Shown piece by piece: positions 30,071 to 36,310 of a stretch of DNA of 39,981 nt. A program made the position numbers and the translations under genes. Position 1 is the stretch's first letter. Each line of letters starts with the position of its first letter. The notes below the pieces were generated by a model. It saw only the letters and a program-made list of their open reading frames with translations, was not told where the DNA came from and did no database searches. Source of the stretch: Pseudogymnoascus verrucosus (taxonomy: Eukaryota); NCBI GenBank assembly GCA_001662655.1, contig KV460256.1, one strand, 5' to 3'.

Positions 30071-33000
30071 TCAGTCAATAGGTTGCTGCTTAAACAATGA
30101 TTTCCCGTTATGCCATTTACGGTATGCTTTATACCTCTTCTTCTGGGCATCCTCGTTGGTGACTGTGAGAGGATTGTCGGGGACGGTTAGAAAGTCGGAA
30201 AAGTCTCTTAAATCCTCCTCAAGGGTATACGAAAGAGAGTTCGATTCTTGCCACGCGCCACTTACATAATCCAGATATTCGACATCAATATCTGCTGGCG
30301 TTTCAGTTGAAACGACAAGTGGTAATGTCTGCGGGTGATTAATGTACCGCGCATAATCTTCCGCTTCCTGATCCGTGACAAATGGATTCAGGGAATCCTG
30401 GACGACTTGCTTGAAAGTCAGCGGGGCCGTTTTGGATAAATCAAGCGCTGGCAGCTTCTGGTTTGATTGTAATAAGTGGATATTTGTAGACCGAGGCTCC
30501 ATCACAGTTCCATGGCTCATGGAGGCTTTCTCGTCGATAGGCTGAAGCCAGCGTTGCCTTGGCGTTCTTTTTGTGGCTCCCCGGCTGACAGAGGTGTCAT
30601 CGTCGTGCTTGTCCTGAGGATCTAAATTGGCAGCTCGGTATTTTACCGCTTTTTTGTCCGGCACTTCTTGATTTATCTCTGTTCGAACTCTGAATGGACT
30701 CAGGTCATACCTCCCTTCTTGGGCAAACCTAACGGGTATGTAGCGTACAGTCGAATTCATATTATAAGAAAATATTTTCAAGAATGAGGAAAGTGCGAGA
30801 GGTTTATAATATTCGAGCCAGTAATCGTCAAAATTATAGAGTGTTTCGTCAGTGGTTCTCGATGTTAATAATAGCGCATCAGTTGGCATCTTCCTCTCGG
30901 CCAGATATTCCGGGGTGTACCAGGAGATATAGTTGCGACGTTGTTTCCCAGACCAAGCTCTTGGATCAGCATGGTGCAGGTAGTAATCGGTTACTAGATC
31001 CCAAAGCATGGGTTGCCCTTGGGTAAAAATGTAATTGCCGAGGAAGAGGTTGTATGCTTCTTGCCGCTGACCGTCGAGAAAAGAGTTGTTATAGTACCTC
31101 TTGAAACTTTCCACCATATCCCTAGAGTGACTTGTCCACTGGTTTATTTTACGATATGTTTCCATAGTATTGACGAGTTGAGAGCCTCCATATTGAACGG
31201 CAATGGTGTCGCCATGATCATGATACATATGGGTAAAGAGATTGACAGCGTCCGTATCATAATCAATAGAGGTCCCAGCAATGATTCCCAATGCGTGCAG
31301 CTGATATCCTAGGGCTCGCTTTCCAATAACAAACTGGGCTGCGTTGGTGCGATCAAGACAATCGATGCAGTTAGTTCTTGCAACCCCGTTCTGCACTGTA
31401 GGGAGAGTGGTCTTGCCGTCTCCATTCCGAAATAGACCGGTAGTGGTAACAACTTCCTCCGCGATAGCTTCAAGTGTCCCAATAACATCTTGGTCACGGC
31501 TTTTAGACGCTCGGCTCATATCCCATGCCTTGTGTATGATTTTTTTACCCTCCGGCAGGGACTGATTTAAATATTTTATGGCACTTGTGAACTCATGCAA
31601 TAACTTCGACTCGCGAGGAATCCTCTCACGAGACTTCACGAGGTTAAGGACGTAAATTGGGGCGCCGTATCGCTGAAACAAGTTGTCAAAATGAAGGGCT
31701 GCCGCACTGTAGAACGGGTCTACCAGATTCAGTTCGATGGGTGGCTTTGGTGTCACTCCAGTATTATCCTGAGTCCAGTATAGGGGTATGCTTCCTCGAT
31801 GTTGAACGTATGACGTATAGTTTGGACTGGCAAAGAGTTTGGGACCCGGCGCATGGAACGAAGTGGTCAGGCCCTCAGCAACTATTTGCTCAGTTTCGAC
31901 ATCGTTGGCAACGTAGCCCTAGGCAATATTTAGTGAGGAACTAAAATAAATATGGGCGAGCTTACCAGATCATTTGCCCCGCGTTTAAGGAATCTGGCCC
32001 CGGCAAAGAATCGCGATCTTCTTGCAATGATTGTAATATGCACGGTCCGGCCGTATATTGAAAGGGCTGCAGGGTTAGCACGTATTCGACAGTGATATAC
32101 ATAGTGCCATACCTGCTTGATCCATGTAGCCATGGATTATTGGAAGACACCAGTCGTAGGTGTTCTTCAGTGCCACTGTAGCAGGCCTCAACAAGTAGTT
32201 GTTCCAGACAAACATGTCATTGTATTCAGGCGGGTATGGGCGAGGAAGGTTTTGAGTCATGGCGGCGCGTTCCTTTAGGATATTGTGTTGGAGTGTGTGC
32301 GTTATATCGTATGAATAACTGAAGTAAAACGAACGGGACAAGTCAAGATTATTCAAAATCCCCAAAAATCTTGTCTCCTCTGCGTTTCGAGAATCTGGTT
32401 TGAATCTGGAATTCTGCGAAGTGACGAGAGGCACAAGTTCCGTCCCATCTATTTGGTAGACATAATGCCCCCCAATCATGGCTACTTGGCTTCTCTTGGT
32501 AATCAAAAGCATATAATAAGTCCCGGTGAATCGAACAAAACCGAGAAGGCCCCATGTGCTGCATTTGAGCTTCATCCCCCCAGTGCTTTTATTGCCGTCG
32601 CCCACGGCACTTAATAATTCGCTCATCTCTTTTTTCGTGTACACCATGTCATCCTCAGCTACGCTTAGGTTCCCAACGTCCGAATTACGGTCAATTTTTA
32701 GAATCCGGAATCTCTGGTCCATGATGTCGGCGCCCACGATGAAGTACCTCGTCGCTGTTTCGTATACTGTGAATTTGTGCATCTTACAACCCCCCTGGTC
32801 GCTCGCTTTTTTATGCACCGCGCCTTTACCCTTCTTTTGATCAATGCTGGGACCAGCGGAACTTTGGGAAGAGCCCGAAATCGCTGGCTGGTCATGCAAT
32901 CCACTGTCCTGGGCAGATTTGGTAGATGAAGGCTGACTTGCATCTTCGACATGTTTTGGTACGTAGTTGTGGAGCGGGGACAAAATTGGCTCAGTCGGAG

Positions 33001-33205
33001 GGTCCCCCGCAGCGAAATAATTAGAGGCAGACGATGGCAGAGGGTGCATGGCAGGTGTTGATCCAAACGTGTCATCGGTTGGCTGTGCACGTTGACGGGT
33101 TTCATCCTGGAATTGCCCCTCAGAGTCTTGACGGCCCCGGTGCCCCGAGGATCGCGACGATCGTCCCCGTGATTCTTCGCCGGTATCATCAGAAGCTCCT
33201 ATCAT
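30071..33205 (-). CDS. FIG4: PI(3,5)P2 5-phosphatase Fig4 (SAC domain)
   Basis: Introns 32067-32112 and 31919-31965. Motifs [42 protein letters not shown], catalytic [12 protein letters not shown] and [10 protein letters not shown]. Confidence 0.93.
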
Positions 33206-33712
33206 GTTGAAGGCTCCTCTTCTGCACACGATCTAGACAGCTACTGGCGCCGTCGTGTTTATCCGTTGTGAAAACTGTTTTGCCATGCTGCGGTCAAACC
33301 ATAAGTAGATTTCGCGGTTGCCTTCCGAAGATCCTGTAGGGGATATTCAGCATGCCAATATTTAGAACATGTTTGGCAATATAGGTGGGTTGTTGATCTG
33401 ACAATTTAGGTGTATTTTAAAGGGTGCTGTAGACCGCGAAGGGTCAAGTGAGGTCTAGCCATCAAGGTTGTCCAGCTTTGAAGTCAACGATCCCAACGCA
33501 CGGACCATGCACGATTAAGCTACGATAACCGATAATCGAGCATGCACGAACTTATAGTACAAGGCTGTCTGTTGTCTATGTGACCCACCTTCCGATTACC
33601 ATACCCAGCACCAACTCTGCTTCTTCACAATCCCGCAAAGCCTCAATACACAAACCTCACCATACACCTCTGCCTTTGCAGATTGCGGATTGCGGATTGC
33701 GGATTTTCTGCA

Positions 33713-34576
33713 ATGGCTAATATATCTCCCCCTCCAAGCGCTACGTACGTGTCATTGCACACCGACACGTTTGTTTCGCTGCTAACCGTGATATAAAGTG
33801 TATATGTCCGCAACCTAGAAGAACATATCAAGGTTGATCAACTGAAAGAAGCGCTCACGGAGCTGTTCTCGGAATATGGCGAAATTATAGATATCGTCGC
33901 GAAGACAAATTTAAAGGCAAAGGGCCAGGCTTTCGTCGTATTTGACACTGTCGAATCTGCCCAAAAGGCTATCGATGAAGTCCAAGGCTTCGAGCTTTTT
34001 GAAAAACCGATGCAGCTCGCGTTTGCAAAAACAAGGAGTGATGCCACGGTTAAGAGGATCGGCGACGAAGAAGAATACGAATCTCACAAGAGGAAACGCC
34101 TCGCAGAGAAGGGTAAGTGATACTGATAGTATGTTGGAGAAGGTTACTGATCCAAAGGATTATTAGATAAGAAGAAGTCCGCGGAGGCTGCCGAAGAAGC
34201 CAAGAAGCTGAAGATCGCAGCGGCAGCTGCTGGAAATGCTGCAGATATGACTTCTCGACCTATCAAAGCAACAAGAGGCGCTGGCTTACGTTCCTCAAAT
34301 GCGGCCACCAGTGCAGTGGTTCCGGATGAATATCTTCCTCCGAATAAGATCCTCTTCGTACAGAACGTTCCAGATGAGTACGATATTGATGCTTTAACCA
34401 GCATCTTTGGAAGATTTGAAGGATTTCGGGAAGTTCGTTTGGTCCCAGGTCGCCGTGGTATTGCTTTCGTCGAATATGAGGCCGAGGCTGGTGCTATAAG
34501 TGCGAAGGAAAACACAGCAGGTGTGGCCCTGGGGGAAGCTGGCCAGGCCATAAAGGTCACTTATCAGAGGCAGTGA
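33713..34576 (+). CDS. MUD1: U1 snRNP protein A (two-RRM U1A/U2B''/SNF family; Mud1/Usp102-like)
   Basis: Introns 33745-33798 and 34113-34166. RRM1 TVYVRNLEE..KTNLKAKGQAFVVF and RRM2 LPPNKILFVQNVP..FREVRLVPGRRGIAFVEY. Assignment to U1A rather than U2B'' is inferred. Confidence 0.88.
33747..33770 (+). promoter_or_regulatory. Intronic RNA hairpin mimicking U1 snRNA stem-loop II, overlapping the 5' splice site
   Basis: ACGTGTC-[ATTGCACACC]-GACACGT: a perfect 7-bp stem with a C-G closing pair and a 10-nt loop starting AUUGCAC. Confidence 0.8.
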
Positions 34577-34710
34577 ATTTTTTTGTTTCTGAATATAAAA
34601 TTGATCTATGAACAACACAAATAAGCTTATAATGTGTGCCTTTAGGCGCAAGCTTGCCATATGACAGGGATTGCCATCCATAACACATTTCGAAGCTATC
34701 TAACAATTGT

Positions 34711-35906
34711 TCAGAATATGACGTCCGCATCTTCTTGCTCCCCAAGAATATCCGCATTGCCCGAGAGTCCGTCGTCACCGCCGTTGCCAGCAGCGTTGTC
34801 TTTTTCCCTTCTTGCTGCCATCTCAGCATCGGCTGCGGCGACGTCTCTTTGCTTCTTGTTCGCAACCTAAACATAGTGTAAGACAACGTAGATAGCCTAT
34901 ATGAACCCAAGCCTACCTTCTTAAGCCGATAAAACTCTTCTCTATCCAGCTCATCGAGCTCAGAATTAATATCTAGGGATGGTTAACGCTATCATCTCGA
35001 ATGCTAGTGGGAAGACGGCCAAAACTAACATTTAATCGTATTTTCAGTACGTGGAATGATGACATGTTCACTGATATAGGTTAGCCAGGGTTGATTGGTA
35101 AAATGACATATACAGACATGGCATTCACTATGACGGTCAGCAAAACAGAATCGAGAGAAGGCGGTTACAATGAAACGAACCTCTGCGGTTTACAACTTTG
35201 ATAACCTCATCCAATATCACAAAAGCTGTCTTGAGTCGAGTGTTAGATATGCTCGTACGAGGCTGTCAAATAGAAGATGGTACCTGTAAACTGGCAAGCT
35301 CAACCAGCGTCTCGACAGCTCGCGCGTACGTTTCCCTGCACCTTTGGACCTGCTGCCCCCCCTTTCCCAAACCCGTCAATCCGAAATCGTTGTTCCCTTC
35401 CGTTGTATAGCTTTCAAAAGCAGGCAGGAAAACGCCAGAAACATTCTCTTGCTTCGTTCGGATACGAAAGCGTGCAGATTTAGCAGACTCCTGAACCTGG
35501 TAACCAATATCGCCGCCAACAGCATAAGTTACTTCTGCAAGTGAAAATGCCGCTATCTGCATAACTCGTCCCATTTTGCGCTTGGCTTCATCAATTCGAC
35601 GGGTTATCTCTAGCAAGGGTGTCAGCGGAGTATCGAGATGCGACTCGTTAGGTGCTACCTCTGAAACGCCTGTGGTCTGTTGTCAGCTAAAGTTGAAGAC
35701 CGTAAGGTAAGGAATATATACTTCGTTAATGCCTCGCTCTTGCGCTTTAAGAGGCTGTGACCTGTCTCGGCTCCCTTGAGTTTGGCCTTCATCAACCCCA
35801 GCGTTTGCCTCGTAGGGAAGACAGCCTCTCGGTCCTAAAACGAGCTGCGTTAGCCAGCACTTCGTGACACTGAGCACCCAGGTTATATTACCGTAGCTCC
35901 CGACAT
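34711..35906 (-). CDS. VMA8: V-type ATPase V1 subunit D
   Basis: Nine exons (35892-35906, 35722-35834, 35659-35669, 35284-35609, 35181-35229, 35118-35127, 35030-35070, 34917-34972, 34711-34866). They give REAVFPTRQ..GHSLLKRKSEALTKRFR..NRRVNAIEHVIIPR..LDELDREEFYRLKK..DADVIF. Confidence 0.95.
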
Positions 35907-36310
35907 TTTGAGAAGGAATATAAATTGCTAGAAAGAGTGCAATGGCCGTTACGGCGAAATAATTACTCCAGCTAAGCTTGATTGTCTCGCTGAGTTGTTT
36001 ACAGCGGACATTATTTGAAGTACAATACAAGCAAGCTGGACATGCCCAGTGGGTTGCTCTCCAAGATAAGGCGGTTGCGGGAACAGGGTACTGCCTCACC
36101 GCCTAGCCGATACGGTTTAGCGTAGTAAGCGCCTGTTCAATGCCCAAACTGTCTGCGACTCGTCCTGTGCCGCGCGCGTCTTCAGAATTATAGCTTCATT
36201 AGCTTTAATATCAATCATCGAAAGGACATTGACACAGGTTTCTCTTAAGCATTATCAGCGCGCCCGGCGCGGCATTTACTGCGCGTATAAAGTGGGCGAG
36301 GACTGAAATC

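Follow-up and report, generated by a model that had tools for sequence, protein, structure and literature searches.

Does the first intron of the U1A-like gene of Pseudogymnoascus verrucosus hold a binding site for the protein that the gene itself encodes? The gene lies at 33713-34576 (+) of the window, by which the whole analysed stretch of 39,981 nucleotides from contig KV460256.1 is meant, and its intron 1 (33745-33798, +) carries a hairpin whose loop resembles that of stem-loop II of U1 small nuclear RNA (snRNA). The comparison of sequences described below suggests that the hairpin is probably a binding site for the gene's own product, free U1A, which would thereby block splicing of its own transcript as feedback.

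The hairpin and the splicing of intron 1

Intron 1 is 54 nt long and starts with the 5' splice site GTACGT (33745-33750, +), which lies inside the stem of the hairpin, as seen from the sequence, the fold and a spliced contig of a public run (X1, described below). The 5' arm ACGTGTC (33747-33753, +) is the exact reverse complement of the 3' arm GACACGT (33764-33770, +), giving seven perfect pairs that were obtained from sequence, fold and covariation alike, and G33764 closes the loop with C33753. The 10-nt loop ATTGCACACC (33754-33763, +) consists of a U1A-type heptamer (33754-33760) and a variable 3-nt spacer, both recognised in the sequence and in the alignment to the Rfam U1 family (RF00003). 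Beyond the 7-bp stem, a mismatch of U33746 with U33771 is followed by the pairs G33745-U33772, C33744-G33773 and A33743-U33774, and RNAfold gave the structure (((.(((((((..........))))))).))) for 33743-33774 at -10.0 kcal/mol. A first-pass annotation of the window had described the GTACGT donor at 33745, the 7-bp pairing with its C-G-closed 10-nt loop, and the U-U mismatch followed by pairing across the exon junction; the donor was found in the sequence, the stem and loop agreed base for base, and the outer pairs were reproduced by RNAfold.

When 71 nt were folded, AGCG at 33737-40 additionally paired with CGCU at 33777-80, and the minimum-free-energy structure was an extended irregular hairpin around the end of exon 1 (33737-33780, +), which stops 1 nt before the branch-site motif GCTAAC (33781-33786, +; branch A at 33785, 13 nt before the acceptor). 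The outer arms of this extended hairpin are identical in the metagenome loci L001, L002 and L004 of the survey described below, and there is no covariation there.

The heptamer by itself is not enriched in the window, where ATTGCAC has two matches against 6.4 expected, at 33754 (+) and 35937 (-) only, and the covariance model built from the hairpins had no match at the second of these (35937-35943, - strand). What is beyond chance is the combination of the heptamer, a 10-nt loop, C-G closure and a perfect 7-bp stem within the U1A gene's own intron, and this is confirmed by conservation, as the search with the covariance model showed.

The gene product, a protein of 251 aa, has two RRM domains (Pfam RRM_1 twice, E 2.7e-14 and 5.3e-10), and the closest solved structures of RRM1 are those of human U1A (E 8e-26) and then U2B'' (E 2.6e-22). 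As judged from its sequence, with two RRMs and an N-terminal RRM1 close to human U1A/U2B'', the gene is a U1A-like member of the U1A/U2B''/SNF family, and its earlier naming as U1A agrees with this. The protein is 100% identical over 251 aa to P0001, a hypothetical protein of Pseudogymnoascus sp. 24MN13 (Leotiomycetes), and the orthologues are named U1A, usp102 or U1A/U2B''/SNF family in their sources.

Intron 1 is a real intron and is spliced from GTACGT to the unusual acceptor AAG. An 864-nt contig from the public run X1, which represents a close relative, joins 33744 to 33800 and 34112 to 34167, and differs from the window by five substitutions (one of them at the junction, C for T33799) and one 7-nt deletion. 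Since exactly intron 1 and intron 2 (34113-34166, +, 54 nt, GTAAGT...TAG) are absent from this contig, both were removed at these borders; run X1 is only guessed to be RNA, and the precise loss of two GT-AG introns is typical of an mRNA-derived contig. P0001 reads SAT directly followed by VYVRNL at the first junction. The acceptor AAG, which both the window and L001, the metagenome locus closest to it, have instead of YAG, is used, because the spliced contig joins there. Read-through of intron 1 gives MANISPPPSATYVSLHTDTFVSLLTVI and then the in-frame TAA at 33794-33796 (+), so that translation of a transcript retaining this 54-nt intron stops after 27 codons, as had been stated in the first-pass annotation.

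Conservation of the loop and covariation of the stem

Twenty-six named Pezizomycotina orthologues were aligned, and with its help U1A-like genes were retrieved from metagenome contigs through two conserved peptide patterns; because these patterns lie in coding exons, the sampling was blind to the intron and to the hairpin. The best 80 of 352 confirmed stretches were taken, of which 75 include the start of RRM1 and were evaluable, the other five being cut. In 33 of the 75 evaluable loci the corresponding intron, which follows the Thr codon preceding VYVRNL, was found to carry the hairpin. By best named protein hit, 20 of these 33 are Leotiomycetes-like and nine are Sordariomycetes-like; three (L047, L056 and L058) group with Teratosphaeriaceae (Dothideomycetes), the L056 protein matching one of Friedmanniomyces endolithicus with 100% identity over 225 aa, and one, L053, is unplaced, with best named hits of 59% or less. 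The class labels are in part background assignments, three of them having been checked.

The loci that lack the hairpin are Eurotiomycetes-like, Lecanoromycetes- or Lichinomycetes-like, other Dothideomycetes-like or unclassifiable, and have an ordinary intron of the GTAAGT type at the site or no intron. Sordariomycetes-like negatives are L011, which has no intron, and L070, which has no hairpin. One further locus, L065, is cut inside the hairpin, and its 3' arm alone is visible.

For the analysis of conservation, duplicates were removed and 26 distinct segments of 34-35 nt (25 loci and the window) were aligned. The C-G closing pair is present in all 26 and ATTGCAC in 24, the exceptions being ATTGTAC (L073) and ACTGCAC (L047). 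The loop is 10 nt long in 23 of the hairpins and 11 nt in the other three, and its last bases occur in seven versions (ACC, ATC, ATT, TCC, CCC, TGC and ATCC). Of the 234 cells of the 9-pair stem, 95.3% hold standard pairs, against 6.8-61.5% in the controls with slid partners, and changes on both sides were found in seven of the nine stem pairs. The alignment of orthologous first introns, which had been proposed earlier as a check, thus shows a conserved loop and a covarying stem. The covariation score was reached by none of 500 shuffles, a count that, with few independent events and related sequences, is not a probability.

Several stem types were distinguished, namely GTACGTGTC/GACACGTAC; GTATGTGTC/GACACATAC, which has a C-G to U-A swap; a U-G intermediate in L037; GTGCGTGTC; GTTCGTAC/GTACGAAC in the Teratosphaeriaceae group; and CGGTCGC/GCGACCG in L053. 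All of them fold as single hairpins, with energies between -8.6 and -12 kcal/mol. The rules for the closing pair and the spacer in recognition by U1A RRM1 are reportedly described with the structure of Oubridge et al. 1994. The pattern of conservation found here, in which the heptamer, the loop length and the C-G pair are kept and the spacer and stem are free, fits the recognition rules of U1A RRM1, and wholly different stems beneath an unchanged loop and closing pair are hard to explain otherwise.

According to the accessible part of PMC6325900, RRM1 of U1A recognises AUUGCAC atop stem-loop II of U1 snRNA. The intron hairpin shares with stem-loop II the position of AUUGCAC on the 5' side of a 10-nt loop, the C-G closure and a helical stem, and differs from it in that it lies in a pre-mRNA intron, its stem sequence is dictated by the splice donor, and its last three loop bases vary. 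A segment of 45 nt searched alone gave a local match to positions 49-91 of RF00003, which correspond to stem-loop II (7.6 bits, E 2), with the loop and closing pair (CAUUGCAC..CG) identical, and there were no gathering-level Rfam matches.

The 5' arm starts at intron position +1 in 32 of the 33 positive loci, so that the whole donor hexamer is paired; in the window the donor is paired from +3 (+3 to +9), with the interrupted extension in addition. In the shortest introns, some 13 nt separate the end of the hairpin from the branch adenosine downstream of it. In L053 the hairpin stands in the middle of the intron (+21 to +44), off the donor and 7 nt before the branch point. The earlier claim that the hairpin hides the 5' splice site therefore holds for the window and for 32 of the 33 loci, in which the donor is in the stem, and does not hold for L053, in which the donor is free. 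Because L053 leaves its donor free, the selected feature is a U1A-type hairpin in a very short first intron and not donor occlusion as such. Outside the hairpin, the positive introns (52-101 nt) have the branch motif alone in common, CT[AG]A[CT] being present in all of them, and retention leads to a stop or a frameshift in 30 of the 30 positive introns examined. At the start of intron 1 of the Leotiomycetes-like locus L006 (1454-1459), GCACGT replaces GTACGT with the hairpin otherwise intact, which makes this either a GC-AG intron or a sequence variant.

The covariance model made from the hairpins gave 34 matches with E <= 2.9e-6 (the 33 loci and the window), one per positive locus. Those to training sequences arise by construction; the informative part is the lack of other sites, since across both strands of 265,390 bases, among them the whole window, nothing else fell below E 0.28. 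When the hairpin-negative loci were scanned under looser conditions (at most 1 mismatch in the heptamer, at least 4 bp of stem), six sense and three antisense matches came up, which is near background. Two related loci without the intron hairpin have, some 65 nt before the ATG, a small hairpin in the 5' untranslated region (UTR) whose 10-nt loop is closed by C-G: TTGC ATTGCACAAC GCAA in L019 (44-61) and TTGC ATCGCACAAC GCAG in L041 (near 1299-1316). These may be U1A sites at another position. Weak ATTGCAC loops closed by C-G on stems of 3 bp were also seen on the sense strand in the 5' UTR of the Eurotiomycetes-like locus L025 (1321-1336) and in intron 2 of the unplaced locus L046 (777-795), near the level expected by chance.

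Predicted feedback and competing readings

From the hairpin, its conservation and the gene in which it lies, we infer that U1A would bind the hairpin, that splicing would be blocked by this binding, and that the unspliced RNA would be degraded by nonsense-mediated decay (NMD). When U1A is present beyond the available U1 snRNA, free U1A would bind the nascent pre-mRNA and lock the stem in which the donor is paired (in most lineages intron positions +1 to +9, here +3 to +9 and the interrupted extension). At a distance of about 13 nt or less, the branch point of this 52-101-nt intron would be close to the bound protein as well, and assembly of the U1 and/or U2 small nuclear ribonucleoprotein (snRNP) would be prevented. 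The unspliced RNA with its premature stop (27 codons here) would give no U1A and would probably be subject to NMD or nuclear retention. When U1A is scarce, the hairpin, at about -10 kcal/mol, would be outcompeted and the intron spliced. As the common denominator of the loci is a U1A-type hairpin in a very short first intron, a steric or structural block of early spliceosome assembly is favoured, and donor occlusion is favoured as the usual form of this predicted block. The steric block is an assumption, because the donor is at the base of the stem, far from the loop.

Several points weigh against this reading. The fold energy does not differ significantly from that of shuffled sequences (z -0.9 for 71 nt and z -1.66 for 32 nt), and fold energy plays no part in the case, which is built on the specific set of features and on the comparison of loci. 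The score of the alignment to RF00003 is weak, as expected for 42 nt, and refers to the consensus of the model, not to the U1 snRNA of this species. The independent events of covariation are few (about four stem types), and many of the loci are close relatives or duplicates. The hairpin is missing from 41 evaluable loci, so that the device is dispensable in large clades. R52 and N15, which we take to be RNA contacts of human U1A, are K and R here in the alignment. Binding of U1A may not thermodynamically stop the donor pairs from opening, and the sole RNA evidence is a single spliced contig, which is incapable of showing retention.

A site for U1A with another output, namely a switch to a mirror donor that adds 6-8 residues before RRM1, promotion of splicing or storage of the RNA, has a small probability in our judgement. 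Being the pairing partner of the donor, the 3' arm has GTAC or GT at its end, and GT at 33769-70 forms a mirror donor in this arm, 24 nt downstream and in frame. The mirror donor is in frame in both stem types, at 24 nt in the 9-bp type and at 18 nt in the 8-bp, Teratosphaeriaceae type, and is used by four public gene models, P0090 of Apodospora peruviana (YVSLHSDT) and P0128, P0146 and P0137 of Meristemomyces frigidus and Teratosphaeria destructans (FVHCTS), which read through the hairpin. Such models count for little, because gene predictors favour in-frame solutions, and the upstream donor is used in most models, in 16 of 19 N-termini in one listing and in 24 of the 26 aligned orthologues, the remaining two being P0090, with the mirror donor, and P0098, with a different insertion. 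The upstream donor is also the one used in the spliced X1 contig of the relative; moreover, the mirror donor is in the same stem and hence also buried, and L053 has no such arrangement. The insertions are either an annotation artefact or a real minor isoform, and the hairpin explains why odd insertions of 6-8 residues stand in several public models of the U1A gene. In seven metagenome gene calls (P0003, P0005, P0018, P0023, P0083, P0093 and P0094) the hairpin is crossed in other frames (..RYVRVIAHRHV..), and such calls leave U1A entries of public protein sets with false N-terminal extensions.

With its -8.6 to -12 kcal/mol, the stem would by itself slow splicing at the donor that it covers, and the hairpin could then be a protein-independent structure that damps use of the donor as a constitutive or temperature-sensitive attenuator, the likeness of the loop being incidental. 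This we regard as improbable: an attenuator of this kind needs no specific loop, yet the heptamer and the C-G pair are kept while all the other positions of the stem change; the hairpin of L053 leaves the donor uncovered; and the element is restricted to the U1A gene in the 265 kb searched. To the same slight degree we would credit cross-regulation, in which the hairpin is read by a separate U2B''/Msl1-like family protein or another RNA-binding protein. The RRM1 domains of U1A and U2B'' are close, as the two E values of the window protein given above indicate, but the loop is a U1-type heptamer ending in C, as in the Rfam U1 consensus, and the form in stem-loop IV of U2 differs from this heptamer; the element, moreover, always lies in the U1A-like gene with two RRMs. 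Conservation through coding constraint on the retained-intron peptide (YVSLH.DT) and not through RNA structure was rejected as very improbable. Leotiomycetes-like and Sordariomycetes-like loci do give similar read-through peptides, but the stem covariation and the frame analysis contradict this reading: where the stem has changed in a compensatory manner the peptide is a different one (FVHCT in the Teratosphaeriaceae type), the reading frame is not the same throughout and meets a stop after a few codons, the introns measure 0, 1 or 2 mod 3, and third-codon positions are conserved equally with the others.

Feedback by free U1A on the splicing of intron 1 is the reading retained here. A wider form of it is put forward tentatively, as possible though rather doubtful: the hairpin might be an old sensor of the free U1A pool, inherited from the common ancestor of Leotiomycetes, Sordariomycetes and Dothideomycetes, in which a stem-loop II decoy competes with U1 snRNA and gates spliceosome assembly. 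Such a sensor would have arisen independently of the vertebrate device in the 3' UTR and would have moved within the intron (donor, mid-intron, branch point) between lineages, and a third state, in the shape of an isoform longer by 6-8 residues, might come from the mirrored in-frame donor.

Relation to known systems and further features of the locus

To our knowledge, autoregulation of U1A by mimics of stem-loop II, which is textbook matter, is known for vertebrates only and at the step of polyadenylation only. The vertebrate element, the polyadenylation inhibition element (PIE), is reportedly the subject of Boelens 1993 and van Gelder 1993. In the accessible part of PMC6884704, vertebrate U1A is described as autoregulating through AUUGCAC-type motifs in its 3' UTR, where the PIE contains two boxes of the heptamer, takes up two molecules of U1A and acts as an inhibitor of poly(A) polymerase. 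For plants, the accessible part of PMC5829640 reports that Arabidopsis U1A does not bind its own mRNA. The present element shares with the PIE the protein family, the heptamer and, on the reading proposed here, the logic, in which excess free protein acts on a mimic of stem-loop II in its own pre-mRNA, and differs in that there is one site, in a terminal loop on the donor of intron 1, and that the step affected would be splicing. No ATTGCAC was found in the 3' UTR of this gene, and no PIE-type Rfam family was listed by cmscan (E <= 10) for 33000-35500 or for 33738-33782. The 3'-UTR location at a fixed distance from the poly(A) signal, the two boxes (there is one site per locus here) and the match to the Rfam model that mark a PIE are all absent.

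A parallel in the step concerned is the splicing autoregulation of yeast ribosomal protein L30 (then L32) of Vilardell and Warner 1994, with which other intron structures of ribosomal-protein genes can be grouped. In it the protein reportedly binds a mimic of its site in a stable RNA, the 5' splice site of its own pre-mRNA being part of this mimic, and assembly of the spliceosome is blocked, the same arrangement as proposed here. The two differ in that L30 binds a kink-turn and the present element is a hairpin loop for an RRM, and in that the one protein is ribosomal and the other spliceosomal. As in the L30 case, the site overlaps a splice signal, the donor being in the stem in the window and in 32 of 33 loci, and the hairpin of L053 adjoining the branch point.

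Fungal screens have described autoregulatory structures in the 5' UTR of RPL12, an intron of RPS13 and an intron of the lysyl-tRNA synthetase gene (PMC8216456 and PMC5640933, as far as their accessible parts go). Like the present hairpin, these are elements of a first intron or of the 5' UTR of Pezizomycotina genes and are thought to bind the encoded protein. The words U1A, snRNP and MUD1 do not occur in the main texts of PMC5640933 and PMC8216456, apart from their supplements, and no report of a U1A-site hairpin in an intron of a fungal U1A gene was found in the literature covered, outside which lie subscription journals and supplements. One apparent literature match, PMC7049704, was false (u1AUG).

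The protein, the RNA motif and the logic of feedback were already known; new are where the site lies, which step it would control and how it is distributed among fungi. If the proposed feedback is true, the same protein-RNA pair has been recruited again for feedback at a different step, which would be a clean natural case of convergent regulatory design, and it would be a further case of a core spliceosomal protein that controls its own splicing. With a hairpin of about 28 nt and an intron of 52-101 nt, the system would also be a compact and genetically tractable model for how a bound protein blocks spliceosome assembly.

The coding part of exon 1 (33713-33744, +) starts with the ATG at 33713 and encodes MANISPPPSA and the first two bases of the Thr codon; it agrees with P0001, and contig X1 covers 33632-33744. 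Exon 2 (33799-34112, +) encodes RRM1, identified by the stronger of the two RRM_1 matches and by the match to human U1A RRM1, and is present in contig X1. The coding part of exon 3 (34167-34576, +), supported by Pfam and contig X1, encodes the linker and RRM2 and ends with the stop TGA at 34574-76. In the 5' UTR, three tandem copies of GATTGCG and a partial fourth (33681-33705) lie 8 nt before the ATG, each unit having five of the seven bases of the U1A heptamer. This array is polymorphic, because the X1 contig is one unit shorter (the 7-nt deletion, at 33681). Upstream of the U1A gene, a long open frame of 385 aa extends from stop to stop at 32075-33232 (- strand).

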